DNA from: Nitrospirota bacterium
GTDB lineage: Bacteria > JACPQY01
Direction: 5' to 3'
NCBI GenBank assembly: GCA_016190245.1
Contig: JACPQY010000085.1
Span: forward strand, 35,095 to 99,094
DNA: 64,000 nt
Shown here: positions 12,458 to 54,877 of the stretch, piece after piece
Position numbering within the stretch: the stretch's first letter is position 1
Layout: each line of letters begins with the position of its first letter
Position numbers and translations under genes: made by a program
Notes under the pieces: model-generated
Database searches by the model: none
Told to the model about the DNA's origin: nothing
What the model saw: only the letters and a program-made list of their open reading frames with translations

Positions 12458-12486
12458 TTAGACTCCTGATACCTTCGTTTTGTTCC
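12458..12486 (-). promoter_or_regulatory. ECF-sigma-type promoter, copy 1
   Basis: GGAAC-N18-GTCTAA on minus; surrounding ~40 bp nearly identical to 24136-24164 and 50501-50529. Confidence 0.6.
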
Positions 12487-12601
12487 AAAGAACGCCAGTT
12501 TTTCCATCGGTCCAACGTATTGTCATTGCCAACAATCCCGACTTGCCCCTCCACCCAACCTCGCCCCTTGTGGGCAGGGGAAGAGGTGCTACAATGAGCC
12601 C

Positions 12602-12991
12602 GTGAGCGTCATCCAAAAGCCCATCACCCTCGCCGGATCCAAGGCCCAGAGGGACGTGACGGCTCTTTTCGACTCGGGTGCCACGTACTCGTGCATCAAC
12701 CCCGAGATCGCCCGCGGGCTGGGGATCACTGATTCCCTCCCCAAGCCGATGATCTTCGGGACCGCCAAGAACGGGGATACCCTCCAGGCCACGGAGGCCA
12801 TCCGTTTGGATTTCCACCTCGCCGGCTATCGCTTCTCGGACGAGTTCATGCTCATCCCGGACCTCTCGGAAGATGTGATCATCGGCGCCGCCACGCTCCA
12901 GAAGTGGCGCTTCAAGCTTGACTTCGAGAACGACGAGGTGATCATCGATCCGCGCGTCACCAAGCTGCGACTCCTTCGGCTCGCGCGATAG
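12602..12991 (+). CDS. Retropepsin-like (clan AA) aspartic protease, copy 1
   Basis: ALFDSGATYSCI catalytic motif and VIIGAATL motif; TGCTACAAT 6 nt upstream of GTG (leaderless type). Confidence 0.88.
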   Translation: MSVIQKPITLAGSKAQRDVTALFDSGATYSCINPEIARGLGITDSLPKPMIFGTAKNGDTLQATEAIRLDFHLAGYRFSDEFMLIPDLSEDVIIGAATLQKWRFKLDFENDEVIIDPRVTKLRLLRLAR

Positions 12992-13045
12992 CCCGGATCC
13001 GGCCCAGTCGGTCATCGCCTCACACGCCTCCTCGCTCACCCCTTG

Positions 13046-13069
13046 GGTCCACAGTCAAGCTCTGACCCC
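13046..13069 (+). repeat. Solo copy of the RAYT terminal repeat, with ~30 bp of upstream homology to the transposase 5' end
   Basis: GGTCCACAGTCAAGCTCTGACCCC; 13018-13069 aligns to 9591-9642. Confidence 0.85.
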
Positions 13070-13084
13070 CAATCACACTTCGGG

Positions 13085-13113
13085 TTGAAAGTAGATAGCA
13101 CGAAGTGTATACT
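13085..13113 (+). promoter_or_regulatory. Sigma70 promoter of the vapBC-like operon (leaderless type)
   Basis: TTGAAA-N17-TATACT-N6-ATG. Confidence 0.75.
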
Positions 13114-13119
13114 TCGCGC

Positions 13120-13383
13120 ATGGCCATATCAGCCAAGGATCTTCGATACAGAACATCCGAGATCCTGGACCGCGTCTCGAGAGGGGAACGCATCTTGGTG
13201 CTGAAGCGAGGCAAGCCCAAGGCCGTCCTCGTCCCGATCGAGAGCCCGGGCGAGGGATCGAAGGAGGAGATTTCCCCGGCCTTCGGGCTCTGGAAAAACC
13301 ACCCCGCCTTGAAATCTCCCAGGGGTTGGCTCAGGAGGCTCCGATCGGGGCGGCACCCGTCCTCTTCGACACGGACGTCCTGA
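13120..13383 (+). CDS. Phd/YefM-family antitoxin
   Basis: ISAKDLR..SEILDRV.RGE.I.V.KRGKP.A.LVP is the Phd N-terminal pattern. Confidence 0.85.
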   Translation: MAISAKDLRYRTSEILDRVSRGERILVLKRGKPKAVLVPIESPGEGSKEEISPAFGLWKNHPALKSPRGWLRRLRSGRHPSSSTRTS

Positions 13384-13742
13384 TCGACTTTCTCCGCGGC
13401 CGTGAGAAGGCGCGGGATTTTCTCGACCGCGTGCCGATCGGCCTGCGCCGTGGCTCGCATATTGTGCTTCTGGAACTGCTCCAAGGGGCGCGCAATCGAA
13501 GGGAGCAAGGCGTCATCGAGCGGTTCTTCAGAGAGTCTTTTCCCGAAACTCATCCTGTCGCGGAGGCCGTTTCGAGCCGCGCGGTCGGGCTCATGCTGCG
13601 GTACGGGGCCACGAGCGGACTGCGGCCAGCGGACTGTTTGATCGCCGCGACGGCCCTCGTACACGGTACGGGCCTGGCCACGGGCAACGTGCGACACTAC
13701 AGCTTCATCCACGGTCTGGAACTCCTGAAATACGACCCCTGA
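13326..13742 (+). CDS. vapC: PIN-domain (VapC-like) toxin
   Basis: VLFDTDVLID..ELLQG..DCLIAATA..LATGNVRHY; start uncertain (TTG). Confidence 0.88.
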   Translation: MAQEAPIGAAPVLFDTDVLIDFLRGREKARDFLDRVPIGLRRGSHIVLLELLQGARNRREQGVIERFFRESFPETHPVAEAVSSRAVGLMLRYGATSGLRPADCLIAATALVHGTGLATGNVRHYSFIHGLELLKYDP

Positions 13743-13898
13743 AGATCCCCGGGGGCTTTGGGGCACGCCCCGTGTTGGGGACGAGAGTCGAGAACGGAGA
13801 ACCGGGAACCGGGGAGCCGGGGAAAGGGCGCGGGGTGCCCCGCCACCGTCCCGGGCTTCGCCATCCCACCCCGGCCCTTGGAACGCGAAAAGCTCCTG

Positions 13899-13914
13899 CT
13901 CACGCTCTGACCCC
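13899..13914 (+). repeat. Degenerate RAYT terminal repeat downstream of vapBC
   Basis: CTCACGCTCTGACCCC, 14/16 match to GTCAAGCTCTGACCCC. Confidence 0.55.
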
Positions 13915-13922
13915 TTTCGCAA

Positions 13923-14810
13923 CTACCTTGGTATGGGCACGGGCTCCCGCCCGGGCGAGATGGCGAGACCATCCAGCAGGAGCCTCTTGTCTCGCTCGTT
14001 TGACTCGTGGGCCCCGCTCACGGCGCCAAAGATGTTGCCCGAATACCACGTGACCTCGAAGAAAGCCGCCGCGCCTCCAACCAGGTAGAGCTGTCTGCGA
14101 AAGGCTTCGTACGTGGCAAGACCGAAGAGGGCATTCAGCACCAAGCTGGTGCCCGCATCGGCCCACCGTCCGAGGTAGACGTGGCCGGCCCCCGGCAGGA
14201 GGGCCGCTAGCAAGCCTGCCGTCACCGGCGACTTTTTCTGACGACCTTGGAGCTCGTGCGACACCCGCACTAAATCGTCGCGGTACTTCGCCAACTGCGC
14301 CTCATCAGGCATGGCTGCGAACACTGATGCGGCACGGGACCCACTGTCCTGATTCAGCCGAATCCAGCCCAGATAGAAAACGGCCTCGGAGGCGACTTCC
14401 CGATCCGAAGACGCACCCGGGGCGAGGAACCCGGAGAAACCCCTTTCGGCGTCGTTCCAGCGCCTCTCGAAGTAGTAGGTCTTCGCCTCCTCCAGCCGCG
14501 CGCGCTCTTGAAGGCCGGCTCCTCCCCCTTCCGTCAATGTTCGGAACTCATCGCGCGCGTCTTCGGCCCTGCCTTGCTGTGTGAGCGCGATCCCAGCCAA
14601 GAGCTTGGACCAGGGGGCCCGCGCACTCGCCGGGTAATAGGCACCAAAGCGACGGAACTCGAGGACGGCCTCATCGAGATGGCCTTCGGCGTAAAGCTCG
14701 CGAGCGAATGCCCAGGAGCGATCCTCGTCCGACTGCATAGGCTCGCCCCGTGCGACGGACGGCGAGACCCCCGCGAGGCTACTCAGGATGATCAGCACGC
14801 TACTCTTCAT
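13923..14810 (-). CDS. TPR (BamD/YfiO-like) protein with C-terminal membrane domain
   Basis: TPR-like helices (FARELY..A..EFRRF..YP.S); KKSPVTAGLLAALLPGAGHVYLG motif. Confidence 0.7.
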   Translation of the reverse strand: MKSSVLIILSSLAGVSPSVARGEPMQSDEDRSWAFARELYAEGHLDEAVLEFRRFGAYYPASARAPWSKLLAGIALTQQGRAEDARDEFRTLTEGGGAGLQERARLEEAKTYYFERRWNDAERGFSGFLAPGASSDREVASEAVFYLGWIRLNQDSGSRAASVFAAMPDEAQLAKYRDDLVRVSHELQGRQKKSPVTAGLLAALLPGAGHVYLGRWADAGTSLVLNALFGLATYEAFRRQLYLVGGAAAFFEVTWYSGNIFGAVSGAHESNERDKRLLLDGLAISPGREPVPIPR

Positions 14811-15312
14811 CCGGACCCACTCCCGAAAAGGACCAGAACTCATGCGCCTCCACCGGGTCAACATAGCGGAGGTGCCCATGGATGCGTTGGCGGGCATAGG
14901 CACGGAAATCTCCGTTGTCGCGGATCAGGCGGTCGCCCGTCATAGCCAAACCAAGCCACAGACCGTTGCGCCGGACCGCTTCGAGTGCGTACCGCGAGCA
15001 AGTGGGATGCATCGGGCAACGCGGGCCATCCATGCGTGAAATGGTTGTCTGGAAGAAACGCACGGCGAGATGAACAGGCAGCCCGACGAGCGACCCTGTC
15101 CCGAAGGCCAACGAGGGCTCGCCCGCAGCCGGACGCGGGGGCGGTTGGATCCACTCGATTTCGATCTGACCCGGGCTCCCCTGCGTCTGCCTTGGGCCCT
15201 GCGCCGCCAAGTCGCCGGCGATGGCGGCGCAAGGGCCCAGGCCGGAGATCGACGCGCCCCAAACCACGAGCGCGCACGACACGAAGGCAACGCATGATCG
15301 GGTCCAGGCCAT
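14800..15312 (-). CDS. YidD-like (haemolytic domain / membrane insertion efficiency factor) protein with signal peptide
   Basis: FFQTTIS..RCPMHPTCSRYALEAVRRNG..G..MT.DRLIR. Confidence 0.8.
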   Translation of the reverse strand: MAWTRSCVAFVSCALVVWGASISGLGPCAAIAGDLAAQGPRQTQGSPGQIEIEWIQPPPRPAAGEPSLAFGTGSLVGLPVHLAVRFFQTTISRMDGPRCPMHPTCSRYALEAVRRNGLWLGLAMTGDRLIRDNGDFRAYARQRIHGHLRYVDPVEAHEFWSFSGVGPDEE

Positions 15313-15602
15313 CAGTCCATCACGTACGCGATGACGAGCCCCAGACCTCCGAGCAAGCATCCCAGCGCGAACCCTTCAACCTTGTCTTCCTCCTTGCCGG
15401 CCTCGTAGGCGGCCCGCACGCGTTCTTCGCGTTGGCGTTCGAGTTCTCTCCGGCGCTGCTGGTATTCGTCCGAGCTGGCCACGATGATCTCGCGCGCTTC
15501 GGCGATCAGTTCGCGGTTCGGCTCTACGGCGAGCGCCCGGTACCTCAGACTGGGCAGACAGAGCAGAGCGGCCAGAACGATGATGCGGCTGAACTGTTTC
15601 AT
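15312..15602 (-). CDS. Small secreted coiled-coil protein with C-terminal TM
   Basis: Signal peptide, charged helix, AYEAGK..G, hydrophobic tail; SD AAGGAG. Confidence 0.65.
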   Translation of the reverse strand: MKQFSRIIVLAALLCLPSLRYRALAVEPNRELIAEAREIIVASSDEYQQRRRELERQREERVRAAYEAGKEEDKVEGFALGCLLGGLGLVIAYVMD

Positions 15603-15643
15603 GATTGCTCCTTTCTCTTGAGAAGGTTTCACCGGGAGAGTGA

Positions 15644-15982
15644 CTAGGCGAACAGGCTGAGGATCGCGATGACATAGAAGGCCGCGACGGCCACGACAGC
15701 GGTACCGCAACCCCAAAGGGCGGCCGTGGTGCGCCCCTTCCTCACGCCTTTGCGGTACGCCTCCTCTTCCTCCTTCTTAATCTGCCGCTCCAGCTCCTCG
15801 AGCCGATCCCGCTCGTCGTCGGTCAGCTCGGCGACCACGACCTCGCCGGAGTGCGCCACGTCGACCGTTCTCGTCGGTCCAGGGGGTGCGACCTCCGTGG
15901 CGGCACGGCCCACACTTGGGGCGGCCAGCGTGAGGATTGAGACCAGAACGAGTCCGCCCATCCGATTCGGCATCACGTGCAT
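15644..15982 (-). CDS. Small secreted coiled-coil protein with C-terminal TM (similar to neighbour)
   Basis: Signal peptide, charged helix, AYRKGVRKG, hydrophobic tail; SD GGAGG. Confidence 0.65.
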   Translation of the reverse strand: MHVMPNRMGGLVLVSILTLAAPSVGRAATEVAPPGPTRTVDVAHSGEVVVAELTDDERDRLEELERQIKKEEEEAYRKGVRKGRTTAALWGCGTAVVAVAAFYVIAILSLFA

Positions 15983-16036
15983 CTTTTTCCTCCTTTGGTC
16001 TTGTGCTCTTGATATCCATGCGGTCGAAGGACCCAT

Positions 16037-16064
16037 GAGATTGCTTCGCTGCGCTCGCAATGAC
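16037..16064. repeat. Half-unit of the 1721-1791 palindrome family
   Basis: GAGATTGCTTCGCTGCGCTCGCAATGAC. Confidence 0.75.
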
Positions 16065-16139
16065 GCGAGAACTCTGAGTCCGTTATCAATCCCGACATCG
16101 ATTCTCGGCCACGTGTCCGTCACGATTCGCACGCCGGCC

Positions 16140-16787
16140 TCAGGATTCATCATCGAGCTTGAGGACCTTTTTCGTCAGGACCGTCAGACCGATGGTGCCT
16201 TGGAAGGTTGGGCCATCCAGGAAACCGACACCCACATCCGTGAGGTAGCCTGCCTCGATAAAAACACGGTGAGAAGTTCCGAGACCGAGGCCCGCCACGG
16301 CACCGACGAGGTTCTGATTTCCGAAACTGCCGGCCGCCCGGAGGACGTATCTGGGCGATGCGTACAAGGACAGCGAGGGCGAGGGGTCATAGCTTGCGAA
16401 GAGGGGCAGGTAGACGTCGTACCAGCCGATATCCGCGCTCGAATAGTCGAAACCGAAACCGGCCGACAGCGCCACGTCGGACTTCGGATCCCGCCCATAG
16501 AACTGATACTTCGCATCCGCGAGGGCCCCGCTCGCGAACCACTTGATGCCGACATCGAGCGACGGCAAGACACCCAGTCGGACCATGGTCTCCACGTTCG
16601 GCCAGATGGCGTTTATGTCCTCTTCCGTCGGATCGTCGGACTCAATGCGGACTCCAGTGAATCCACCGGCGCCCACTACCGTGACTTCACCTTGTTCGAG
16701 CGTGCGACCGCTCTGCAAGGCGGACATCGAAGCGCACCCGCCCAGCACGATGGCGCTGAGGCCGGCGGCCAGGATTGTTTTGTTCAT
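16140..16787 (-). CDS. Lipoprotein / outer-membrane beta-barrel-like protein
   Basis: LGGC lipobox, alternating beta-strand pattern, SD GGAGG. Confidence 0.65.
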   Translation of the reverse strand: MNKTILAAGLSAIVLGGCASMSALQSGRTLEQGEVTVVGAGGFTGVRIESDDPTEEDINAIWPNVETMVRLGVLPSLDVGIKWFASGALADAKYQFYGRDPKSDVALSAGFGFDYSSADIGWYDVYLPLFASYDPSPSLSLYASPRYVLRAAGSFGNQNLVGAVAGLGLGTSHRVFIEAGYLTDVGVGFLDGPTFQGTIGLTVLTKKVLKLDDES

Positions 16788-17183
16788 CGTGTTCCTCCTA
16801 CTGTTGTTTGTTGCGTGGTCGGTCTGAGTTCGGGGTCGGTCCACGCGGCCGGGCCCGATGGACGTTGTGAGAGATTCCAAGTGAATGACAGGTCCGGGCC
16901 TCTACCTCCCCTTGTCCGCCGCGGCGGACTTGCCCCTCCTCACCACGGTCATCGCCCCGCCTTCCTGGCGGGGCCACACCTGGACAAGGAGTCCTGGTGC
17001 CACGTAAGGAAGGCAGGCCAGGATGGCCTGCAAATAGCGTGGCATTGCGTGGTACCTGGCCCTCCTGGGCCACGGTACAAAGGAGGGGCAGATCTTCCCC
17101 CGCGTATCGGGCGGCGGGAGAGGCCTGAGATTCCAGTACGGTGAAGGTGCCGATAGTCGCCTGAGACAGGCAGGCGTGTGCGC

Positions 17184-18395
17184 TCACTTGTCCGGCTCCT
17201 TCAGAAACTTCGGGAGGGGCGGAGGGGGGCAGGGACGATTCTCCGGGGTGCCGTCCCACCGGAGAAGCCCCATGCGCATGAGTTTCCGGTCCACCACCTC
17301 CATCGACGATTCCGGCATGGGGACTTCGATGCCGGCTTTTTCGAGGGCATACCGCCAGGAGCCGAAATGCCGGCGGGCCGCGGCCACCAACCCAGGCCTG
17401 ATCTTTAGCGCGTGGCTTACGACGAGACTGCCCGCGTCCGCGACATAGGCACGTACACGCGCGAGCACTTCTTCATCGGAGAGACGCAGGTGAGTCGCCA
17501 TCCCGTCGTAAGGCACGCCGACGGCTTCAAGCGCCGCACGCCACGAGCTGAAATGCTCGCAGGCCTTCGAGTAGAGCTTCCGGTCCTGCCTGAAGACGTC
17601 GTACGGGCGCACACTCAGACCCGCTCCTTTTCGCGCCTCGATGGCCTGCAAGACCTGCTCCCGGGTCCACCGCCGCCGGGCGCGGCACTTTTCAGCGTCT
17701 AGATCGGCCGCCCTGAGCGCCTCCGACCACGACCCGAATCGTCTGACGGCACGGTGATAGAGGGAGTCCCATTCCAAGCGGACGCCGTTAGAGTTGAGCG
17801 GCAGGCCTGCTGCGATCCTTTCGTGGATCATCTTGACAATGGCCGCTCGGCGTTCCTGCCTCCGGTACGGATGCGGAGCGCGGCTGAGTCCTGCCGCCTG
17901 GAGGGCGTACCGATAGCAGCCGAAGTACCGCCGCACGGCTCTGGACAGGGGCGGGTCCTTACGGACGAGGTGGTACGGGACGAAGTCGCCCCCGCCCACG
18001 AGGTCTCGGAGGGCCTCGATGACACGCTCGCGGTTCCAGCGATTGAATCCTTGGCCTCGGGGGGGCGACTGTGGCGGGGCGACGGGACTCCTCACCCCAG
18101 CCCTCCCCGGCTGTCCAGTCCGCCACGGCGGACGGACGGGCAGGTCCTCTTCGAGGAGAGGGGACGGATGCTGCCCGTGCTGGGGCCCGACGGGATCGGC
18201 GTTGAAAAGGCCGGAGGGGGAGGCGCTCCGATCCACCGGTGGCAGGACCATGGCTCGCCCTCTCCGCCACGGCGGACTCGCCTCGTTCCGCCGGTACAGG
18301 GCCTTCGTGGCCCGCACCGGTGGACCGGATGGTTGGGACAGCGACGAAACAGACCGGAGGCCGTCGCGCCTCCCGTTTCCTGCAGTTTCAGTCAT
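17184..18395 (-). CDS. Protein with four homing-endonuclease-associated (HNH_repeat-like) helical repeats, no nuclease domain
   Basis: Four ~52-aa repeats ending (Y/R/H)F(G/S)(C/S)(Y/W)..AL..AG(L/V/I); ATGA overlap with traE; N-terminal ~100 aa derived from DNA repeats, so the start is uncertain. Confidence 0.7.
   Translation of the reverse strand: MTETAGNGRRDGLRSVSSLSQPSGPPVRATKALYRRNEASPPWRRGRAMVLPPVDRSASPSGLFNADPVGPQHGQHPSPLLEEDLPVRPPWRTGQPGRAGVRSPVAPPQSPPRGQGFNRWNRERVIEALRDLVGGGDFVPYHLVRKDPPLSRAVRRYFGCYRYALQAAGLSRAPHPYRRQERRAAIVKMIHERIAAGLPLNSNGVRLEWDSLYHRAVRRFGSWSEALRAADLDAEKCRARRRWTREQVLQAIEARKGAGLSVRPYDVFRQDRKLYSKACEHFSSWRAALEAVGVPYDGMATHLRLSDEEVLARVRAYVADAGSLVVSHALKIRPGLVAAARRHFGSWRYALEKAGIEVPMPESSMEVVDRKLMRMGLLRWDGTPENRPCPPPPLPKFLKEPDK
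18088..18163. repeat. 76-bp palindrome-containing element (core GTCCGCCACGGCGGAC), second copy at 30373-30448
   Basis: Near-identical copies, both inside ORF 5' ends; a related inverted variant at 58311-58355. Confidence 0.85.
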
Positions 18396-19069
18396 GGTGG
18401 GCCCGCGCTCGTTTCCACCTGCCCCCCTGTCTGGATCGCGCCCTGGTTCACTTTCACAACGGCGACCGCGCGCGGCGCCGCTGGCGTGGGCGCCCGGCGG
18501 CGAAGTTCGACTTCGTAGAAGTAGGGACCGGTCCAGACCGGCTTCGTGCCCACGTACATCTCCCGCAACCCTTCCAAGCGGACGAGGTAGCGATCGCCTT
18601 TTTGCGAGACGATCCGGCCCTCGCCCACGTGAAACACTTCCGAGATCTGATTGCGCCGGATGTCCTCGAGGCGGTCCGAGACACGAACGTCGAACTCGGC
18701 AAGGACGACCTTGTCCATCATCGCGCGCACCGCTGCGAACGCCTTGTCCGCTGTGGAGTAGTTCCAGTTTGCGAAGGAGAGGATGAAGGACTTGGCGGTA
18801 TCCTCGATGTACTCGGTCGGCACCTCGCCCGGGCGGAACACGCCGCCTTCGGAGGCACCGGGGACAACCAATACCGGTCGCGGCCGCGCGGCGAGGTAGA
18901 TCAGGCCCACAAAGAGCAGGCCCGCGAGGGCCGTGACGGAGACGGCATAGAGTCGCACGACGTTGTAGCGGGCTTCGGCTTCGCCCCAGACTTCCCAGAA
19001 TTTCGGCAGTCGGGAGTCGGCAGTCGGGAGTCGAGGGACGGGAGTCGGGTGGCGATCACTAGCGGACAT
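18392..19069 (-). CDS. traE: F-type T4SS protein TraE (VirB8-like)
   Basis: One N-terminal TM then VLVVPG..EYIEDTAKSFILSFANW; downstream of traL; SD GGAGG. Confidence 0.7.
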   Translation of the reverse strand: MSASDRHPTPVPRLPTADSRLPKFWEVWGEAEARYNVVRLYAVSVTALAGLLFVGLIYLAARPRPVLVVPGASEGGVFRPGEVPTEYIEDTAKSFILSFANWNYSTADKAFAAVRAMMDKVVLAEFDVRVSDRLEDIRRNQISEVFHVGEGRIVSQKGDRYLVRLEGLREMYVGTKPVWTGPYFYEVELRRRAPTPAAPRAVAVVKVNQGAIQTGGQVETSAGPP

Positions 19070-19595
19070 GCCCACCTCCCTCCGGCCCAGCCGGGCTTGA
19101 CCATGGAGCGTTTGCGGAGCGATTAGGCATCGTCTGCCCGGGCGAAGCCGCCGTTCGAAGGATCGCCTGGATGAGGCGGGTCAACATCCTTCCGACATCG
19201 TCCATGAGCGGCTCCATCTGAGGATCGAGCGTGTAGCCGAGGTCCCGGACCAGATCGGACAGCGTGTCCACCTCGCTCAAGGATGCGCGCGACATCCGAA
19301 GAAACCGGACGTACTCCTTGGCAGAACCTCGGGCGGCGCCCTCGGCGATGTTGCACGCTACGCTGACCGCGGCCCTCTGCATCTGAGAGGCCAGACCGTA
19401 TCGCTCGTGCACCGGCCAAGTACGCGTGCAGTGGTAGGCCCTGCGCGCCAAGGCCATCGACTTTTGCCAGACATCCAGCTCCTTGTGGGGTTTCCATGCC
19501 CCTTTCTTTCCGACCTCCAGCTCGGAAACGATCTTTCGGGATTGGGTCTTGGCGACTCCCGACTGCCGAATGCCGACTGTCGCCTCGCGGCTCAC
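19059..19595 (-). CDS. Four-helix-bundle protein (IVS-encoded/Avd-like family)
   Basis: HKELDVWQKSM..WPVHERYGLASQMQRAAVSVACNIAEG..FL..SRASLSEVDT; GTG 19595 overlaps the traL stop; flanked by heptamer repeats. Confidence 0.88.
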   Translation of the reverse strand: MSREATVGIRQSGVAKTQSRKIVSELEVGKKGAWKPHKELDVWQKSMALARRAYHCTRTWPVHERYGLASQMQRAAVSVACNIAEGAARGSAKEYVRFLRMSRASLSEVDTLSDLVRDLGYTLDPQMEPLMDDVGRMLTRLIQAILRTAASPGQTMPNRSANAPWSSPAGPEGGGHVR

Positions 19596-19864
19596 GAGGA
19601 ATACCTCCACCGCCCCCTCTGCGGCTTGGGCCAGCCTTTGACGGGAAGGCCCTTGCGGTAGAGGAAGTGGACGAGGTAGCCCGGCGGTTTGCCCCTCTTG
19701 AGCCTCTTGATGGCGATGACCGCGGCGAGGCCGCCGATGACGGCAAGGACAGCGGAACCCAGCACGAGGTTGACGATCCCCATGGCGGCGGGCAGAACGG
19801 CCCACTCCTCGGGCTCGAGACCGAGGACGGTGATGGGCTTGTCAATGTTCTGGTGGACTCTCAT
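19592..19864 (-). CDS. traL: F-type T4SS protein TraL (VirB3-like)
   Basis: QNIDKPITVLGLEPEE..two TMs..KRGKPPGYLVHFLYRKG matches the TraL signature. Confidence 0.8.
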   Translation of the reverse strand: MRVHQNIDKPITVLGLEPEEWAVLPAAMGIVNLVLGSAVLAVIGGLAAVIAIKRLKRGKPPGYLVHFLYRKGLPVKGWPKPQRGRWRYSS

Positions 19865-20160
19865 CGGACGGTGAACCCGTGAGCCCGGGAACCCGGGAAC
19901 CCGAGAGCCCGGGAACCCCGAAGGCAGCAAGATGCGAGAGCGGGGAACCGGGGAGCTCGGGAGCCCGAGAGCAGGGCAAGAAACCCGGTCCTCCGGGAAC
20001 CGAGAACAGCGTAGGCGGGGAAAGGCGTCATGTGGCCACGACCTCCCGAGCTACCGGCCTCATGCACCGATCCCGCCTTGGCCTTGGCTCACGGAAGCAG
20101 CCGCGGACCGGCCGGCGCATCCGGGGGGTGGAATGGGTGCTCAGTCTGCGCATGGGCGAC

Positions 20161-23535: not shown

Positions 23536-24117
23536 TCACTTCTTCTCTGCTTCATCGGGCGCCTGAAGCTTCCACTCGCCGGGATCGAGCAGCACGAACT
23601 CATGGTGACCCGGGAGGAAAGTGCCGGAGACGATCATCGGGGGCATCCAGACCCGCTGGACGAGGGGGCGCTTCCAGACGTAGTGCTCCACTTCCGTCAT
23701 TTCCTGCCGCAGCGTGACCGCTTCCTGGAGTCCTCGTTTATATCCTTTCACGTAGGCTTCTTTGAGGTCCTTCCCTGAGGCCTTGGGGAGGTCGGCGTCT
23801 TTGGGTGGCGCCAGCTCGAGGTGGAGCCCCTCCGATTCGCAGCGGAGCGTCTCGCCGATCTGGTCGCACTTGAGTTCCATCTGGGGGGCCTTTCGGCCGG
23901 AGGGCTCGCCGGCCACCGCGTGAGCGGTGAGCAGTGAACAGTGAACGGTGAACAGGAGGGCGAGGAGCCAGGAGTGGGCCGCCATCAACCCCACCACCAG
24001 AGAAAAAGAACGCGGAAGCCAGGATCGCTTTCGTCCACAAGGCCAAATACCGACATCAGGATCCGCACTTCCCCTCTCTTTCCACGTTTTCCAACTCATT
24101 CTGGTGACGCTATGCAC
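23536..24117 (-). CDS. TraV-like outer-membrane complex protein (putative)
   Basis: C-terminal PLVQRVWMPP..GTFLPGHHEFVLLDPGEW resembles the TraV motif R.WIAP..G..H.G..V.V.PG.W; no clear lipobox. Confidence 0.45.
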   Translation of the reverse strand: MHSVTRMSWKTWKERGSADPDVGIWPCGRKRSWLPRSFSLVVGLMAAHSWLLALLFTVHCSLLTAHAVAGEPSGRKAPQMELKCDQIGETLRCESEGLHLELAPPKDADLPKASGKDLKEAYVKGYKRGLQEAVTLRQEMTEVEHYVWKRPLVQRVWMPPMIVSGTFLPGHHEFVLLDPGEWKLQAPDEAEKK

Positions 24118-24135
24118 TTGGTCCTCCTGTTAATA

Positions 24136-24164
24136 TTAGACTCCTGAGACCTCGGTTTTGTTCC
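24136..24164 (-). promoter_or_regulatory. ECF-sigma-type promoter, copy 2, followed by SD AGGAGG
   Basis: GGAAC-N18-GTCTAA directly upstream of the traV-like/pilin block. Confidence 0.65.
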
Positions 24165-24291
24165 AAGAATCGGGGGGCGGGAGTCGGCAGTAGGTAATTC
24201 TGGGATATCCGGAAGAACCGGGAGGCCGAGAGGTAGGGATGCCGGGAGGCTGGCGACCCTCCGCCCTGTTGTGGACCTCGCCTGTAACCAT

Positions 24292-41810: not shown

Positions 41811-42467
41811 TCAACCCTTCACCAAGGGTCGTTTCGACCCGCGCTCCGGGGCAAACAACAAGTCGGTGTAGCCTTGCATCACATCGCCACAGGGATCCCC
41901 AGCGCTAAGCCGCTGGAACTCCTCTAATGAGACCCTGTTGTCTTGCCGAAAAAAATAGTCCTTGCAACCCGAGCTTGAAGCCTGTCCCAGGATTCCGAAG
42001 TCATCACCATCGTAGTAGGGCGCTTCGGACACATCCACGAACTGACACAGGCTTTCATTGGGCAGCGATGCGACATCCTCCATACATGACACGTACGACG
42101 ACGACAGGCCAGTCGCGCGAAGAAACTCTGCACACCTCGCACGGTCTGGAATCTCCAGAGATCCACTGACTCGCTGGTCCATCAATGCCCGGCACTCCCC
42201 CACTGTCGCCGGCGAAACCCGGATCGAAGTAGCGCTGTCAAAGATAGCCGCTTTTCTGCCATACCCACAGGCAAATAGGACGTCACACGTCTTGTGGTAT
42301 CGGACCTGTAGTGCATGGAGGTGGTTCTCAATTGGGTCCCCCTCGTTCCCCCCTCCCTCATCCCCCCCCCCGCAGGTGGGAAGAATCGTGAAGGGGAATG
42401 TGTAAAGGGTGAGCAGCAGGGCCAGGATCGAGAACCGTGAACCGAGAATCGTGAATCGATGGGTCAT
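41811..42467 (-). CDS. 8-Cys lipoprotein, paralog L3
   Basis: LPTC lipobox-like, CDVLFAC..TVGEC, 8 Cys after the lipid Cys; SD AAGGAG. Confidence 0.75.
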   Translation of the reverse strand: MTHRFTILGSRFSILALLLTLYTFPFTILPTCGGGDEGGGNEGDPIENHLHALQVRYHKTCDVLFACGYGRKAAIFDSATSIRVSPATVGECRALMDQRVSGSLEIPDRARCAEFLRATGLSSSYVSCMEDVASLPNESLCQFVDVSEAPYYDGDDFGILGQASSSGCKDYFFRQDNRVSLEEFQRLSAGDPCGDVMQGYTDLLFAPERGSKRPLVKG

Positions 42468-42479: not shown

Positions 42480-43500
42480 TCAGAACCGCAAATCGGGAAT
42501 CGTGAATCGGAAATCGAAAACCGAGAAAGGAGAACGGCTCTTGTGGCGAACCCTGAAGCGTGAAGCGAGACCCCATGCGGCATCGGCGCCGAGGCCCGGG
42601 AGTAACGATCATGCGTTCCGTCCCATCCGCCGCCACGACCCGCCGACGCGGTCGAGCAAACGGTGAGCAGTGAACGGTGAACAGCGGGGCGAGAACCGGG
42701 AATCGGGAACGGGGGGCCAGAAGCCGAGAACCGGGGAACCGTCTGTAAAGTCTTTGGGGACGTTGCCAAGCAAAGCAACTCCCGCCGACTTCACTATGGG
42801 CCGCCCGTGACGATCGTGCGTTCCGTCCCATCCGCCGCCACGACCCGCCGACGCGGCCGCCGTGCACGAATCCGTGCGCAGATCAAGCCTCGGGAAGTTG
42901 TAGATCGCGTCGCCGTCAACGTCGGGAGGGCCGCCGTCAAAGCGGGCACGGCTCTGCGACTGCACCTTGGGGACAGGCAAGTCAGATTGCCCCATCAGGA
43001 ATGCTCCTCTCGGGGATCGCGGAACCTTCGGGACGTTGCCAAGAAAGTCAAGCTGTGCCATCGGGGGTGCTCCTTTCGGAATCGGGAATCGCAAATAGGG
43101 GAACGGGGAGCCAGGGAGCCGGGGAACCGGGAAATGCAAATCGGGAATCGGAAACTGAGAACAGCCGGTCTGGATTCCGGCTTCCACCGGAATGACGGAC
43201 CTTGACCCCGCAGCGCGCCGGATTCCCCGCCAGCCGGCGGGGAATGACGCACCCCCCTGCCGCGGCGCGGGCGCGTCTCCGAAAACCCCTCCTGTCTCTC
43301 CATAGGCATTCCCCCTCGGAATGCCCGCACCCTCGGTTCTTCGGCTCGCCCTCTCCGCCACGGCGGACTCGCCTGATCCTCGGGTACTGGGCCTTCGTGG
43401 CCCGCACCGCTCGAAATCCCGCCTCACCTTCCCGGCTCGGCCGGTACTCACGGCACGGGGTCGTCCTGGCCCGCCACTCCACCTCTCTGGTGAGGTTCCC
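42480..43500. repeat. Repeat-dense intergenic mosaic
   Basis: Blocks homologous to 12071-12282, 10958-11030 and 9705-9911, heptamer tracts, and a GTCATTCCGG..CCGGAATCCAG-type palindrome near 43168-43197. Confidence 0.8.
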
Positions 43501-44321: not shown

Positions 44322-44352
44322 CCAAGGCTTTGAACCGTGCTACAATGCCCCA

Positions 44353-44730
44353 ATGAGCGTCATTCAGAAGACGGTTCAGCTGGAGGGATCGAAGGGAGCC
44401 GCCGAGTCCCCCGCCCTGTTCGACAGCGGAGCAAGCTATTCCTGCATCAGCCCCGATCTCGCCTCTCAACTCGGCACGCTTGAGCCACTCCGCCGACCCC
44501 TTTCGCTCGGGACCGCCAAGAACGGCGACACCCTGACCGCGACACACCGAGTGACCCTCGATTTCTACCTCCAGGGCTTTCATTTCTCGGACGAATTCCT
44601 CCTCATCCCAGACCTTTCCGAGCAGGTCATCATCGGCGCCGCCACACTCCAAAAGTGGCGGTTCAAGCTCGACTTCGAGAACGACGAGGTGATCATCGAT
44701 CCCCGGGTCACGAAGCTGCGGCTGCTCTAA
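44353..44730 (+). CDS. Retropepsin-like (clan AA) aspartic protease, copy 3
   Basis: ALFDSGASYSCI; TGCTACAAT-N6-ATG. Confidence 0.88.
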   Translation: MSVIQKTVQLEGSKGAAESPALFDSGASYSCISPDLASQLGTLEPLRRPLSLGTAKNGDTLTATHRVTLDFYLQGFHFSDEFLLIPDLSEQVIIGAATLQKWRFKLDFENDEVIIDPRVTKLRLL

Positions 44731-44762
44731 CGGTCGCCGCCGTTCCACGGACTCTCCACCCT

Positions 44763-49886: not shown

Positions 49887-49998
49887 TCTGGCCCAGGTGA
49901 CTTGCGACTTGTGATTTCCATAGAATATGGCATCTTATTTGTCAAGTTAGCTCACCTTTTGGACCCTTCCAAAAGCGCGGGAAGGATGGTGATGGTTG

Positions 49999-50421
49999 AT
50001 GGATGATCGGAGCAAGCGGCGGAGACGCCACCCGCCTCGGACCGTGACGGTCAAACCCACTGAACTGGGCCTTCGGCTCGGCGCCCGCATCAGGGCGTTG
50101 CGCGAGCGGGGCGGGGTCACGCAGGTGCAGCTTGCGGAACGCGCAAGCATCGGCATCGAGACCGTCAGCCGCCTCGAGCGGGGCATCGAGAACCCCACGA
50201 TCGGGATCCTCGAGACGGTCTGCCGGGCGCTGAACGTGGACATCCACGAATTGTTCGAGCGGGCGTATTCGGTTGAGGAGTACATCCGGAAGCAGGAGGT
50301 GCGCCAGATCGCCGAGAGGCTCGGGGGGGCCACCCCTGCCGAGCTTGCCGCCTTCCGCACCCTGGCCAATGGGATCCGTACGCGGGGCTCGAAGCCATAC
50401 CGGCAACGGCGCTCGCGGTAG
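49999..50421 (+). CDS. XRE/Cro-CI family HTH regulator
   Basis: LGARIRALR..TQVQLAERASIGIETVSRLERG..NPT..LE.VC.AL; divergent from the adhesin operon. Confidence 0.9.
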   Translation: MDDRSKRRRRHPPRTVTVKPTELGLRLGARIRALRERGGVTQVQLAERASIGIETVSRLERGIENPTIGILETVCRALNVDIHELFERAYSVEEYIRKQEVRQIAERLGGATPAELAAFRTLANGIRTRGSKPYRQRRSR

Positions 50422-50500
50422 AGTCCAGCCCCGCAGAATCCCCCGTTCCCATCTTTTTCAGGCCCTCTGAGCAACCCCATATCATTTGCCCCTATTAACA

Positions 50501-50529
50501 TTAGACTCCTGAGACCCGCGTTTTGTTCC
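50501..50529 (-). promoter_or_regulatory. ECF-sigma-type promoter, copy 3 (convergent with the XRE gene)
   Basis: GGAAC-N18-GTCTAA. Confidence 0.55.
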
Positions 50530-50562
50530 AATGTGGACTCGGCCACTCTTCATCAGCCCCCC

Positions 50563-50962
50563 TCACTGAGCCACCGCGGCCACCTGCACCGGAGTGGCCG
50601 ACTGGGTGGTGCCTTCATCGCCCAGTTCGCCGTGGTCGCTGTCCCCCCAGCACCGAGCACTCCCGTCCGACAAGACAGTGCAGGTGTGCAGATTCCCCGC
50701 CGCAATGCCCACAGCCGATGAAAGTCCCACAACCGGGGCAGCAATGGGGAAACTGGTCAACTCAATCAACTTGGCAAACTGGTAAGATGGGACCATGGCA
50801 CCAGTGAGAGCCCCCGTTCCCAACTGGCCGACCACGTTGCCACCCCAACACCGAACCGTCCCATCCGAAATGAGCGCGCAACTGTAGTCGCTGCCCACGG
50901 CGATTGCCTTCGCACGGGAAACGCCCGCGACCGTGGCCGGCACTTTGGAGTACGTCCGCAGG
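50563..50962 (-). pseudogene. 5'-truncated RCC1-repeat gene remnant
   Basis: Two RCC1 repeats (YSCALISDGTVRCWG, HTCTVLSDGSARCWG) in a frame that begins at the RAYT inverted repeat without a proper start. Confidence 0.7.
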
Positions 50963-51698
50963 GAAAAGGGGACATTCCTATTTTTCACGGCAGCAGCCTC
51001 GGGCGACCCCGCGGCCGAAGGCTGGACTCCAACCCCAGATGCGCTGCGGTCACGAGCACCCAGTCCCGGCGACCGAACGGAGTTCCCTTGTTTACACATG
51101 TGCGCACGCGATCCAACTCCCCAGGCGCGAACGGCGTGTTGACCCAATCCGCCCAGCTGGCGGGCCACACCACTGGACCTCCATCCAGCTCGATGTGGTT
51201 TCGGACGCCCAGACGAACGCCGCTGCTGGACCACTCCCACTCACTGGCCCTCCTGACCAAGCCCGCCCGAACCGGGTTCCGCTCGATATAGCGAGCCGCG
51301 ACAAGAAGATGCCCGTCCTGCTGAATCGGAAAGGCCTTGAACCGGCCCTGCCAAATCCGGCCGCTCGTACCGTAATGCTTGTTGTACCGGCAGACGTGTG
51401 TCGTGAGCAGCCAGTGCATGTAGCGGCTCAGGTCGTCATCACCGTGAGGCCAGAGCAGGAGATGAAAATGATTTGGCATCAGGCAATACGCCAACAATCG
51501 CATGCCCACGCGAGCCCCAGCCTCTCTGAGGAGTTCAACAAAAGCCTGGTAATCGTCGCAATTGTGGAAAATCTCGCGGCGACCGTTTCCGCGATTGATC
51601 ACGTGGTAGCAGATGTCACCCACGCAGGCCCGTGAGGTTCGAGGCATCAGGATCGCTCTACTCCGCGTCTTGTCGAAAAATAGGAATGTCCCCTTTTC
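50963..51698 (-). mobile_element. RAYT-type element with perfect 24-bp terminal inverted repeats
   Basis: GAAAAGGGGACATTCCTATTTTTC (50963-86) and its exact reverse complement (51675-98). Confidence 0.8.
50985..51647 (-). CDS. REP-associated tyrosine (HUH/Y1) transposase
   Basis: YHVINRGN..AYCLMPNHFHLL..GRIWQGRFKA..YIERNPVRAG..WSS. Confidence 0.92.
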   Translation of the reverse strand: MPRTSRACVGDICYHVINRGNGRREIFHNCDDYQAFVELLREAGARVGMRLLAYCLMPNHFHLLLWPHGDDDLSRYMHWLLTTHVCRYNKHYGTSGRIWQGRFKAFPIQQDGHLLVAARYIERNPVRAGLVRRASEWEWSSSGVRLGVRNHIELDGGPVVWPASWADWVNTPFAPGELDRVRTCVNKGTPFGRRDWVLVTAAHLGLESSLRPRGRPRLLP

Positions 51699-51703
51699 TT
51701 CAT

Positions 51704-54700
51704 CTAGTCCCTCAGCGTGTTCCGATACGCCTCGACGGCGCGGTCGGCGCGGCCGGCCACGACGGCGTCGGGAGCACCATCGCCATCGAGATCGCCCAGC
51801 TTCAACTCGTGGGCGCCCGAGGCGACCGATTCGAAGAAGGGGCGACAGTAGCGCCCGCCGCCGAGCGATTTGAGGAGCATCAACTCATCGCCTTTCCCGC
51901 GCCGCCCCCCGGCGCCGACGACGGCCAGGAGGTCGCCGCGCCCATCCGCATCGAGATCCGCCTGTTGCAGGGCCAAAATGGGAGCCTCGATCTCCCGGCT
52001 CCGAAGGAGCGTGATAGGGGGCGCCGACCCCGGTGCAGGGTTGTAGAAGAGCAGGTGCCCGCTGTGCGTCCCCACGATGACCTCGCTCTTTCCGTCGCCG
52101 TCCGTGTCCCCCGCCGCCAGCGCCGAGGGCACACCCGGAAGCTTGAGAGCCATGGGCGCGCCATACGACCCGGTGGCGGGATCTCCCAGGGCGATGGAAA
52201 GCGACGAGGTGATCGGGTGGATCGCGAGGAGGTCCTTCTTGCCATCGCCATCCACGTCCAGGAAGAGTTGACCTTCCGGATCGGGCAGGGTCGTGGCGCT
52301 GCGGGCCGTGAACGCGCCCCCTGAGTTGAGGAACCACGTGACCTTGTCCTTCGCCGGAATCACATGGGCGAGGTCGAGCCTTCCGTCGCCGTCCAGATCC
52401 GCCGCCGTCAGCGCCAGACCGTTCTTCTCCGTCGAGAGGCTCGCGATGGATTGGTACGTGTCACCCCGCACGAGCAGGACCGAGCCTTCGTCCAGCAGCA
52501 CGGCAAGGTCTTCCACCGTGCCGCCGGTGAGAGGACCCGCGCCGAGGGAGGAGCCGGCGGAGGTGGTGGTGAGGGTGTCCACCACTCCGAGGAGGTTCCC
52601 CACGGAGCCGAGCCCGTAGGCGTAGATCTTCTTGTTCGCGAGGTCCGAGACGTGAACGCGCGCCACCCGCCCTCGCTCGGAGATCAGGCCCACGGCCACG
52701 GGGTCCGGCTGGGGATCGGTGACAAACGCGGTGGAGAGATGGCCGCTCGATTGCCGATAGACCGCAAGCTTCTCCGATGTGAGCGCCACCACCTCGGACG
52801 TGCCGTTGCCATCGAGATCCGCCATCGCCAACGATTCTGCGGGGCCGAATGCAGACGCGGCGGAGCCCGTCACGGTGGTCTGCACCATGCCGATGGGCTT
52901 GAGGGCGGCGCTGATGAGCATGGACCGAATCACCGCTCCGCCGTTTTCCAAGAAAACGAGGTCCTCGATGCCGTCGGTGTTAAGGTGACCGATAACGGGT
53001 CGCTCGGGTGCGTCCAGCCCCTCTTGGATCGTCGGCGTTTGGAAAAGGCCCTCCGGTTCCATCTCGAGGATTCGAAGTTCGCTCTCCGAGAGGGCGATGA
53101 TCTCGGGCGCGGCGTCGCCATCGAGGTCGGCCCCAAGAATCTCCGTGAGCGGCGGAAGGCCGCTCTCTCTACGAACGAATTCGTAGCGGCCGTCCTTCTT
53201 GGGCGAATCGAAAACGTTGAGAGCGCCCTCGAGCAGCGAGGCCGTGCCGAACACGAGCTCGGTCACGCCGTCCTGGTCGTAGTCCACCGCGGCGACACCG
53301 ATCACGCCCGAGAGGCCCGTGCGGGTTGAGGCCAGCGGCGTGAGGAGCAAACCCTTGGTCGCATCGTAGCGGCCCTTGGCGGTGAGGATCGTCGCGGTGC
53401 GCAGGTCCACCCCCACGAAGTCGTAGAGGCCGTCGGCATCAACGTCCGTCCACTCTGCCGGCATCAACAGCGTGCCGGGGTTCTCGCGCACGGGATGTTC
53501 CTTGCCCGCGAACGGACGCCCGTTGGAATCCACGCGAGACGAGAGGGCGATGTAGGGTCCCCTCAGCCCGGCCGCGGTCAGGATGGCATCGCGGACGCCG
53601 TCCGAATCCACATCGAAATACACAACCTGTTCGGGGGCCCCCACGTCGAGGTCGAGCCGGTCGAGGTGTGTGGCCAGCCGGGTGAGCGTGGGCGCTTCGA
53701 GCAGCCAGAGCCGGCTTGAGGCCGCCGAGACCATCATGAGTTCCTCCCGACCGTCGAGGTTCACGTCCGTGCCCGTGGCGCGGGCCTCACCCGAGGGGTA
53801 GATCCCCAGGTCCGTGGTCCACAAACGTTCGAGGGGGCGGACGCCCTTCACCTCGATCGTCAGCGGGAGCCCGCCAAAATCCGGCTTCTCCCCCTTGGGC
53901 CCGCGCAGCTTCACGCCGTCTTCGGTGAGCTTGAGAGTGAGCGACCGGCCGGAGAGAGACGGCCCGGCGCAATCCGCCTCGACCGCGATCACGAACCCGG
54001 TTGCGCCGCCGCTGAGCGAGATTTCCTCCCCCTCCCCCTCGCGCACGAGGCGCAAGCGGAACTTTCCTTCGCCGGTCGGCTGCGGCGCGATCTCGCCGAG
54101 CTTGATGTCCCCCTCGGAAACGGCGTGGTCTCCATCCACATCCTGGTAAAGGAAGACACGCGTCACCGCCCCCAGCGCCGCCGAATCCGAGCCCTCCACC
54201 TCGAGTTCGACGCCCCGGAAGAGGAGCGGTGAGTTGGCGTTGATCTCGAAGGCGAGCAGCGTGCCCACCCCAGAGAAGGCGCTCACCTTGGAGGAATCGG
54301 AAGCCACGCGGATGTTGCCCGCCTGCGGGATGGTATTGATCAAGCGGAGGGCGTAGGTCTCTCGCACTTCGAAAGTGCCCGCGCCACCGACGCGCACCAC
54401 CAGACGGACGGGATACGTCCCGTCCGGGTTGGTGTTCTTCTGGCTGAGAATGTAACCGACCTCGTACCTGCCGTCCGGGAGGGCCTGGATGGTGACGGCA
54501 TCCGCGGCGTACCCCGTGTCAACGGCTGAGAAGTCCGCCTGGACGGACCCCTCTTGCGGCGCGAGGCCGGAGAGACCGAGGTCGAGCGTGAGAACCACCC
54601 GATCCCCGTTGCGCACTTCGGAGGGCCCCGTCACGGTGATGGCGGGACCGATGGGAGCCTCCTGGGCCTGTTCGCAGGCGACTGCAAGTGCGAGCAGAAC

Positions 54701-54721
54701 AGCGAGCGACCCCCTCTTCAT
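51704..54721 (-). CDS. FG-GAP/VCBS-repeat lipoprotein
   Basis: AVAC lipobox; many D.(D/N)GDG..D repeats. Confidence 0.85.
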   Translation of the reverse strand: MKRGSLAVLLALAVACEQAQEAPIGPAITVTGPSEVRNGDRVVLTLDLGLSGLAPQEGSVQADFSAVDTGYAADAVTIQALPDGRYEVGYILSQKNTNPDGTYPVRLVVRVGGAGTFEVRETYALRLINTIPQAGNIRVASDSSKVSAFSGVGTLLAFEINANSPLLFRGVELEVEGSDSAALGAVTRVFLYQDVDGDHAVSEGDIKLGEIAPQPTGEGKFRLRLVREGEGEEISLSGGATGFVIAVEADCAGPSLSGRSLTLKLTEDGVKLRGPKGEKPDFGGLPLTIEVKGVRPLERLWTTDLGIYPSGEARATGTDVNLDGREELMMVSAASSRLWLLEAPTLTRLATHLDRLDLDVGAPEQVVYFDVDSDGVRDAILTAAGLRGPYIALSSRVDSNGRPFAGKEHPVRENPGTLLMPAEWTDVDADGLYDFVGVDLRTATILTAKGRYDATKGLLLTPLASTRTGLSGVIGVAAVDYDQDGVTELVFGTASLLEGALNVFDSPKKDGRYEFVRRESGLPPLTEILGADLDGDAAPEIIALSESELRILEMEPEGLFQTPTIQEGLDAPERPVIGHLNTDGIEDLVFLENGGAVIRSMLISAALKPIGMVQTTVTGSAASAFGPAESLAMADLDGNGTSEVVALTSEKLAVYRQSSGHLSTAFVTDPQPDPVAVGLISERGRVARVHVSDLANKKIYAYGLGSVGNLLGVVDTLTTTSAGSSLGAGPLTGGTVEDLAVLLDEGSVLLVRGDTYQSIASLSTEKNGLALTAADLDGDGRLDLAHVIPAKDKVTWFLNSGGAFTARSATTLPDPEGQLFLDVDGDGKKDLLAIHPITSSLSIALGDPATGSYGAPMALKLPGVPSALAAGDTDGDGKSEVIVGTHSGHLLFYNPAPGSAPPITLLRSREIEAPILALQQADLDADGRGDLLAVVGAGGRRGKGDELMLLKSLGGGRYCRPFFESVASGAHELKLGDLDGDGAPDAVVAGRADRAVEAYRNTLRD

Positions 54722-54848
54722 CCCATTACTCCCTGGCCCGGATCGGCGCGGCGGCAGACCTTCTCCGCACCCACAACTTCGAGAATGCTCCCGTGCAGGC
54801 AGCCCCTCTTGGAAGGTCCGATGCGCATAACTAGTCCCTCTATAGTTA

Positions 54849-54877
54849 TTAGACCCTTGGTGGCTACCTTCTCTTCC
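54849..54877 (-). promoter_or_regulatory. ECF-sigma-type promoter, copy 4 (diverged spacer)
   Basis: GGAAG-N18-GTCTAA upstream of the FG-GAP gene; ATAACTA..TAGTTAT inverted repeat adjacent. Confidence 0.45.

Follow-up and report, generated by a model that had tools for sequence, protein, structure and literature searches.

A genome-wide family of candidate extracytoplasmic function sigma promoters upstream of surface-protein genes in a Nitrospirota bacterium

The window examined here is a stretch of 64,000 nucleotides (nt) from a Nitrospirota bacterium (genome G000, contig C79, positions 35095-99094), and its subject is a short motif that occurs in it four times, of which three copies are probably promoters read by a sigma factor of the extracytoplasmic function (ECF) type. 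All contig numbers refer to G000, an assembly of 3.29 Mb in 86 contigs with 64.6% G+C that is 85% complete, and positions without a contig name are those of the window. A first-pass annotation made from the window alone had described four minus-strand sites of the form GGAA(C/G)-N18-GTCTAA and had read them as ECF promoters of one regulon for pilus and adhesin genes. An exact search for TTAGAC-N18-STTCC on the plus strand, which is GGAAS-N18-GTCTAA on the minus strand, recovers these four sites (12458-12486, 24136-24164, 50501-50529 and 54849-54877), whereas 0.01 matches are expected from 100 dinucleotide shuffles of the window and no shuffle reached four. As described there, the sites face a lipoprotein cluster, a block with a pilin-like gene, TraL and TraE, an adhesin gene and an FG-GAP gene. 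The sites at 12458, 24136 and 50501 are 86-88% identical over 43 nt (repeat family D19) and share the spacer TCCTGA(G/T)ACC-N3-GTTTT on the plus strand, in agreement with the earlier description, while the site at 54849 is only 65% like the other three. The sites are listed below with the scores of the position weight matrix (PWM) used in the genome scan.

12440..12489, minus strand: putative class-1 promoter module P1 (site 1), core 12458-12486, predicted +1 near 12450, PWM 71.8
24118..24167, minus strand: putative class-1 promoter module P2 (site 2), core 24136-24164, predicted +1 near 24128, PWM 69.6
50483..50532, minus strand: putative class-1 promoter module P3 (site 3), core 50501-50529, predicted +1 near 50493, PWM 76.2
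54831..54900, minus strand: class-2 element (site 4), GGAAG-N18-GTCTAAT at 54849-54877, PWM 22.3

A promoter scan found no sigma-70-like promoter at the three class-1 sites of the window, and the Rfam 15 families at the gathering score gave no match in the 64 kb.

The class-1 sites of the window belong to a larger family. The loose pattern occurs 14 times in the genome, compared with 3 times for a reversed-pattern control, and the genome scan that the first-pass annotation had proposed, done with a PWM built from the long consensus, returned 16 class-1 sites with scores of 57-76, three of them in the window; the next best score, 22, is that of the site at 54849. The class-1 consensus is TTGGAACAAAAC-N5-TCTCAGGAGTCTAAT, followed by about six A/T-rich bases and then by an A and a run of G. 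The TTGGAACAAAAC block is found 16 times in the genome and 15 of these have the second half, so that the halves almost never occur apart. The lone block, at C78:48812 on the minus strand, is preceded by 22 nt that resemble the C63 site (gcggacggatt(t/a)tcgggacg), and it may be a decayed class-1 copy. Pairwise BLAST of the 400-nt flanks of the class-1 copies showed that homology ends about 45 nt out (limit ~32-46 nt), and the motif is therefore not the tip of a longer repeat.

Columns were numbered from the first G of GGAAC and information was computed over positions -2 to +30 against the genome base composition. All 16 copies agree in 19 columns, and 13 or more of them agree in 26. The total information is 56 bits where about 19 bits would be enough to specify 16 sites in the genome, which upholds the earlier remark that the spacer is conserved beyond the needs of sigma recognition. 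The canonical GGAAC and GTCTAA elements contribute 21.5 bits, the AAAAC tract 11.6 bits and the mid-spacer block TCTCAGGA 14.4 bits; the central N5 holds 0.96 bits (a random column gives 0.14). GGAAC is invariant in all 16 copies, as are C26, T27, A29 and T30. The GGAAC-N18-GTC spacing is likewise the same in 16/16, with GTC itself in 12 copies, TAC or GAC in four, and its C in every one. A conserved purine/G-run sits where the +1 position is expected, ~7-8 nt past GTCTAA. The element has no dyad symmetry and no inverted or direct repeat structure. The N5 and the flanks are randomised while the neighbouring columns are invariant, and it therefore appears that the ~26 conserved positions are held by purifying selection and not by the youth of the copies. 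Site 3 of the window and the copy at C29:58234 are identical over 32 nt, N5 included, and Logan contig L001 (run SRR12113390) breaks exactly inside site 3, at C79:85596; the motif is thus long and exact enough to fragment short-read assemblies.

All 16 class-1 sites are intergenic in home-made gene calls, which come from a crude dicodon caller and were cross-checked against public gene calls. Each of the 15 judgeable sites has a same-strand gene 19-615 nt downstream, and the 16th, on C38, runs off the contig end. Four of the 16 lie on one 133-kb contig, C79. The sites thus have several features of ECF promoters, namely an AAC-core -35 element, a GTC-core -10 element at a fixed spacing (in ECF promoters 16-19 nt from the AAC), an intergenic position with co-orientation to the next gene, and a copy upstream of a sigma/anti-sigma operon. 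The geometry would be canonical, with GGAAC as the -35 element and (G)TC as the -10 core 18 nt apart, if the conserved A/G-run ~7-8 nt after GTCTAA is the +1. The corresponding elements of E. coli sigmaE are 'GGAACTT' and 'GTC' (PMC6648896).

Pfam searches of the whole genome identified RpoD, FliA (C56, beside flhA/flhF) and no more than three genes of the ECF type, which lie on C53, C33 and C10. They place no sigma-70-family gene on C79, and the statement that the window holds no ECF sigma gene is correct. A search for ECF and anti-sigma genes had also been suggested, and the pair that carries a class-1 motif upstream is on C53.

C53 13325-14053, minus strand: ECF sigma gene, 242 aa, TIGR02937 88.3 bits

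The class-1 site at C53:14207-14235 is located 153 nt upstream of this gene. In public gene calls on three Logan contigs the order is serS, a divergent 394-aa gene, the motif and the ECF sigma gene, followed downstream by a zf-HC2 anti-sigma gene (279 aa), a TPR-CHAT gene (822 aa) and a Peptidase_C14 gene (504 aa). The C53 protein has sigma2 and sigma4 domains only and scores above the profile cut-off (TIGR02937 88.3 against 42.9; PF08281 51.4, PF04542 27.2 and PF07638 29.3 bits), and an anti-sigma gene is adjacent. Among proteins of solved structure it is closest to E. coli sigmaE, SigW and AlgU. In its sigma4 recognition helix, GTVSSTLYRAL where sigmaE has GTVRSRIFRAR, the residues that correspond to sigmaE S172 and R176 are retained. 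These sigmaE residues touch both G's of GGAAC, and a serine at 172 is correlated with a G at -34 (PMC1540707). The anti-sigma gene overlaps the stop codon of the sigma gene, and its product features a zf-HC2 domain (33.6 bits) with the sequence HLKGCDPC (HxxxCxxC), one hydrophobic, putatively transmembrane segment and a periplasmic tail of ~140 aa. On C53 (L003, 8472-13328) the anti-sigma gene is followed by separate genes for the secreted TPR-CHAT and Peptidase_C14 (EACC1-type caspase) proteins. The TPR-CHAT (PF12770) and C14 proteins both start with signal-peptide-like segments, and inspection by eye shows that the His/Cys motifs are kept, SAHAE and MSGCQT in the CHAT protein and YAGHG and DACYSG in the caspase. 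Genes for M50 site-2 proteases are present in the genome.

No class-1 motif stands upstream of fliA or of the ECF genes on C33 and C10. The chance that a site would lie before one of three ECF genes among ~2,500-3,000 genes is ~2% by a rough estimate. Contigs C53 and C79 belong to one organism, since both occur at 100% identity in the same two sequencing runs. Judged from these sequence features, the C53 protein is most likely the cognate sigma factor of the class-1 sites, and the motif copy before its operon reads as the classic signature of autoregulation, because it has exactly the core and spacing of an ECF promoter and precedes one of the three ECF genes.

The reading that best accounts for these results is that the class-1 sites, three in the window and at least 16 in the genome, are promoters of one ECF (group 4) sigma factor, for which a probability of about 0.7 is given. 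For sites 1-3 the ECF architecture, position, orientation and membership in the family of 16 bear out the proposal of ECF promoters of a single regulon; the site at 54849 falls outside the family (PWM 22 compared with at least 57), and for it the proposal is not supported. Several results weigh against the reading. Some 26 positions (56 bits) are conserved in class 1, whereas the spacers of sigmaE promoters show 'very little sequence conservation' (PMC3326320), and 14 of the 56 bits lie in a mid-spacer block that known ECF contacts do not explain. Four of the 16 sites have TAC or GAC in place of GTC, the equivalent of sigmaE R171 is a Ser in the C53 protein, and the autoregulation argument rests on one site. 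Sites 1 and 3 are separated from the first clear gene by ~600 nt, and between site 3 and the adhesin gene there is an XRE gene on the other strand. Among 5.8 billion proteins none exceeds 30% identity to the C53 sigma. The sigma orthologue, the CHAT protein and the class-1 motif family are all missing from G001, which together with G000 makes up the whole of the GTDB order and of the class. No similar upstream motif was found on the contigs of the nearest sigma matches, and two motif patterns scanned in a metagenome-contig and a genome-contig collection gave 0 matches each. The Logan contigs match the genome at 100% identity or close to it, with 3 mismatches over 4456 nt in one of them, and give no signal of population microdiversity. 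A literature search on ECF control of type IV secretion systems (T4SS) or adhesins returned nothing relevant.

The genes below the sites of the window are given here; operon extents were assumed from gene order.

11051..11860, minus strand: first gene below P1, lipoprotein with lipobox ...LVATAGC
10513-11265, minus strand: TRL-like protein below P1, then further minus-strand genes
23536..24117, minus strand: first open reading frame (ORF) below P2, 193-aa secreted protein with the signal-peptide-like segment LLALLFTVHCSLLTAHA
19592-19930, minus strand: TraL (PF07178, 35.2 bits), F-like T4SS block below P2
18392-19075, minus strand: TraE (PF05309, 37.4 bits), F-like T4SS block below P2
44763..49886, minus strand: RCC1-propeller/Big-domain surface protein (adhesin), 1707 aa, with lipobox, main gene below P3
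49996..50421, plus strand: XRE-family helix-turn-helix gene (PF13560, 56.3 bits), convergent with P3, between P3 and the adhesin gene
54718-54828, minus strand: 36-aa ORF below the class-2 element
51704-54721, minus strand: FG-GAP protein, 1005 aa, below the class-2 element

P1 faces the lipoprotein cluster across a ~600-760-nt leader of degenerate repeats. A 57-nt repeat is present in five copies (11616-11672, 12193-12249, 23927-23983, 42388-42444 and 42656-42712), and its minus strand encodes a shared signal-peptide segment (...LLFTVHCSL...). At least two of the five copies lie in stretches without an intact ORF, with degenerate RFPIxxSRF-like repeats around the copies, and those in the long leader below P1 may be decayed paralogues. 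P2 points towards the 193-aa secreted protein, an ORF that resembles a pilin gene, a protein of 936 aa, and TraL and TraE; the LLALLFTVHCSLLTAHA segment of the 193-aa protein is paralogous to a segment in the 11051 gene. A transcript from P3 would be antisense to the XRE gene before it reached the adhesin gene, and this antisense RNA across the XRE regulator could be a built-in switch. Two genes for Y1 (IS200/RAYT-like) transposases also lie in the window (8596-9612 and 50985-51647), and each is enclosed by a pair of inverted repeats 24-32 nt long (8586-8617/9617-9648 and 50963-50986/51675-51698); the transposase at 8596-9612 also has a DnaA-C helix-turn-helix domain.

The putative class-1 targets, beginning with those of the window, are as follows.

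C79, in the window: lipoprotein cluster (site 1), TraL/TraE block (site 2), 1707-aa RCC1 adhesin (site 3)
C79:1075: small ORFs
C53: the sigma operon itself
C53: REC-domain protein and GGDEF-PilZ protein, with tandem sites 191 nt apart
C55: GAF-GGDEF-PilZ protein
C50: 1905-aa DUF11 protein
C64: 1525-aa M23/Ig protein
C63: two lipobox proteins and a 1237-aa secreted protein
C48: lipoprotein
C78: 102-aa pilin-like protein, signal peptide plus one more hydrophobic segment, no Pfam match
C29: operon for acyl carrier protein, enoyl-CoA hydratase and AMP-ligase
C31: 423-aa secreted protein

The targets are overwhelmingly secreted or envelope proteins, and the regulon is much wider than pilus and adhesin genes. 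The earlier proposal that a host or element ECF sigma switches on the pilus and adhesin apparatus thus gains a candidate, the chromosomal sigma on C53 with its upstream motif, and loses its restriction to these genes. Just upstream of the tandem class-1 sites on C53 a sequence of ~137 nt (TTCCCCGGTAGCCGCACCCCCTTGCCGAGGATGGCATGGGGCCATGATAGG...; L003 4540-4790, minus strand) occurs as two perfect direct copies, and a 78-nt relative that is 82% identical lies ~200 nt upstream of the C31 class-1 site. A separate family of ~45-nt repeats, ACTAGTACCATGTKGACTAATTCTTGGAACRGATCGGTGCC, was met in the CTAAT scan at C16:11090, C51:8450 and C63:102734 and is unrelated to the class-1 motif.

The site at 54849 has only one other copy in the genome, C55:6539-6567 on the plus strand. 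The pair shares GCCCCA(T/A)AACCGGCCCGGAAGAGAAGGTA, followed by GTCTAAT and an A/T-rich stretch; the conserved upstream block at site 4 is CCCA(T/A)AACCGGCCCGGAAGAGAAGGTA. The AAC core is absent (GGAAG at 54849), as are the AAAAC tract and the mid-spacer block, and class 2 has only the -10/start half in common with class 1. GTCTAAT is rare in the genome (29 copies compared with ~119 expected), one extra copy that is followed by a G-run is not significant, and no other promoter family turned up when the genome was searched for GTCTAAT with the start half alone. On C55, a 6.8-kb contig (L008), a class-1 site at 6387-6415 on the minus strand is divergent from the class-2 element, with 123 bp between them, and on the side of the class-2 element the contig stops after 245 nt. 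Site 4 is possibly the promoter of the 36-aa ORF and the FG-GAP gene. It may be a promoter of the same sigma with a different upstream half, a promoter of another sigma, or something else; that the class-1 sigma reads it is a tentative proposal, somewhat less probable than its opposite.

The excess of information in class 1 can be explained in ways that keep the ECF sigma and add to it. The sigma could read the -35 and -10 elements while the mid-spacer block (~-21 to -14) is bound by a second, obligatory factor, which might be a co-activator or a shared repressor, and the regulon would then be gated by two inputs. This would fit the 56 bits found where ~19 are needed, the 14.4 bits of the block by itself, the imperfect 8-bp palindrome CTCAGGAG, the lack of conservation in sigmaE spacers (PMC3326320) and the class-2 elements, which keep the -10/start half without the block. 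However, no candidate second factor was identified, the block is only 8 bp long and lies on a face covered by polymerase, and its fixed register is equally expected if the holoenzyme reads the block or if DNA shape is selected, which leaves a composite of two binding sites as a rather doubtful explanation. A related proposal is that the block is a third obligatory promoter element, read by a new contact of the ECF holoenzyme or by a dedicated co-factor, in an undescribed, ultra-specific class of ECF promoters that goes with a split TPR-CHAT/caspase module. Such a tripartite promoter would explain the threefold information excess (56 compared with 19 bits), and the class would control an F-like T4SS, adhesins and cyclic di-GMP (c-di-GMP) enzymes; it is a possible reading, although on balance an unlikely one.

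Other explanations do without a sigma factor or without selection on the motif. Protein operators show conservation as high as this over ~30 bp more typically than sigma consensus sequences do, and the motif might be an ordinary transcription-factor operator or another DNA site, such as a recombination site, with its likeness to ECF promoters and its copy at the sigma gene being coincidental. The element is asymmetric, though, and has neither inverted nor direct repeats, it is strictly co-oriented with the downstream genes, and it has the exact ECF spacing and core bases with one copy before an ECF/anti-sigma operon; a recombination site is further contradicted by unrelated flanks without target duplications and by the lack of a recombinase consistently nearby. 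These points make an operator or recombination site improbable. Nearly the same standing, if slightly lower, is given to a recently spread mobile promoter cassette whose copies are alike because they are young. The 32-nt identity of C29:58234 and site 3 and the four copies on one contig are what such a cassette would leave, but homology ends ~45 nt out in every pair, the five central positions hold background-level information between neighbours that are invariant in 16/16, there are no terminal repeats or target duplications, and the motif is absent from the two public collections and the sister genome G001. The earlier suggestion that the promoter was spread as a small duplicated module is not supported on two of these grounds, the early end of homology and the randomised N5 between invariant flanks. 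The least probable of these explanations, to which very little weight is given, is that the motif is part of the transcript and functions as an RNA element in the 5' leader, e.g., a platform on which CsrA or a different RNA-binding protein would occupy GGA motifs and the Shine-Dalgarno-like AGGGG. GGA triplets do occur at GGAAC, CAGGAG and AGGGG, a start codon lies 5-10 nt past the G-run in ~11/16 copies and a csrA gene is present in the genome. The ORFs that begin at these start codons are not conserved and mostly look non-coding, whereas the real gene starts are 19 to ~760 nt away; there is no conserved pairing, covariation or Rfam match in the window and no sigma-70-type promoter upstream, and invariance over 26 positions is far above CsrA-type specificity.

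Further candidates were tried and rejected. A MITE- or REP-like repeat or recombination site does not agree with homology over only ~32-46 nt, the lack of symmetry and the randomised N5. AGGGG as a Shine-Dalgarno sequence of a conserved small ORF was dismissed since these ORFs lack conservation and one of them continues across the following copy of the motif; AGGGG itself may be either part of the start region or a Shine-Dalgarno sequence. Sigma-54 and sigma-70 readings do not fit the spacing and hexamers when checked by hand, and the sigma-70 scan was empty. Methylation of GAGTC as a GANTC site was discarded because 4/16 copies are without GANTC.

The ECF sigma reading can be compared with systems that have been described. 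Promoters of E. coli sigmaE (RpoE) have a GGAAC -35 element with an AA-tract, a GTC-centred -10 element and an A/T-rich discriminator (PMC6648896, PMC1540707, PMC3326320), and the likeness extends to positive autoregulation of the sigma/anti-sigma operon, to envelope-directed targets and to the protein itself, for which sigmaE is the best solved relative (E 7e-12) and in which the GG-reading residues are kept. In contrast, identity to the C53 sigma is low (a 48-bit local match) with Ser for R171, the class-1 elements stand one base further apart than is optimal for sigmaE, their -35 block is lengthened to TTGGAACAAAAC, they have an invariant block of 8 nt in the spacer where sigmaE spacers are essentially unconserved, and the C53 anti-sigma is of the ZAS type and not RseA. 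The Myxococcus xanthus protein DdvA, the anti-sigma of the ECF sigma DdvS, features a zinc-binding N-domain, one transmembrane helix and a periplasmic TPR-CHAT protease domain (PMC11506125, PMC6061681), and its TPR-CHAT domain has been proposed to clip itself before RseP acts (PMC11506125). Both systems combine an ECF sigma, a zinc-finger anti-sigma with one transmembrane segment and a periplasmic TPR-CHAT module in one autoregulated operon, and the proposed logic of CHAT cleavage followed by M50/RseP intramembrane proteolysis is matched here by the presence of M50 genes. The C53 system differs in that the anti-sigma is a protein of 279 aa without a fused TPR-CHAT domain, the TPR-CHAT protein is a separate 822-aa secreted product of the next gene with its own signal peptide, a second caspase (Peptidase_C14) follows, and the regulon consists of surface structures and c-di-GMP enzymes and not of a CBASS/CRISPR defence island. 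A phmmer search of the PDB with the C53 CHAT protein gave no match. By analogy, the C53 system plausibly works in the same way as DdvA, and its split arrangement would offer a natural test of the trans-cleavage step proposed for DdvA. Streptomyces BldN, which directs the chaplin and rodlin genes (PMC6101532), is also an ECF sigma that is a master switch for secreted surface-structure proteins and not for damage repair; the organism, the anti-sigma (RsbN), the promoter sequence and the targets are unrelated, and the analogy is one of logic only.

In the proposed mechanism, a signal from the envelope or from outside would lead to periplasmic cleavage of the anti-sigma by the TPR-CHAT and C14 proteases, and an M50 site-2 protease would then complete its removal. 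The freed C53 sigma would amplify its own operon and switch on a surface programme of the F-like pilus/T4SS block, giant adhesins and lipoproteins, which would also take in the two GGDEF-PilZ c-di-GMP enzymes and the acyl-carrier/ligase operon. Probably, then, one envelope-signal switch turns on pilus, adhesin, lipoprotein and c-di-GMP genes together. If the ECF sigma reading is true, a complete and testable circuit of sensor proteases, anti-sigma, sigma and 16 promoters is present in a GTDB class with only two species representatives. The sigma/promoter pair could serve as an orthogonal switch in synthetic biology because it is isolated in sequence space and very high in information. For the organism, the reading would mean that the F-like secretion/pilus apparatus, the giant adhesins and the synthesis of c-di-GMP form a single surface programme run by the host chromosome, and it would bear on whether the T4SS cluster is a domesticated machine for adhesion and contact or a plain conjugative element.

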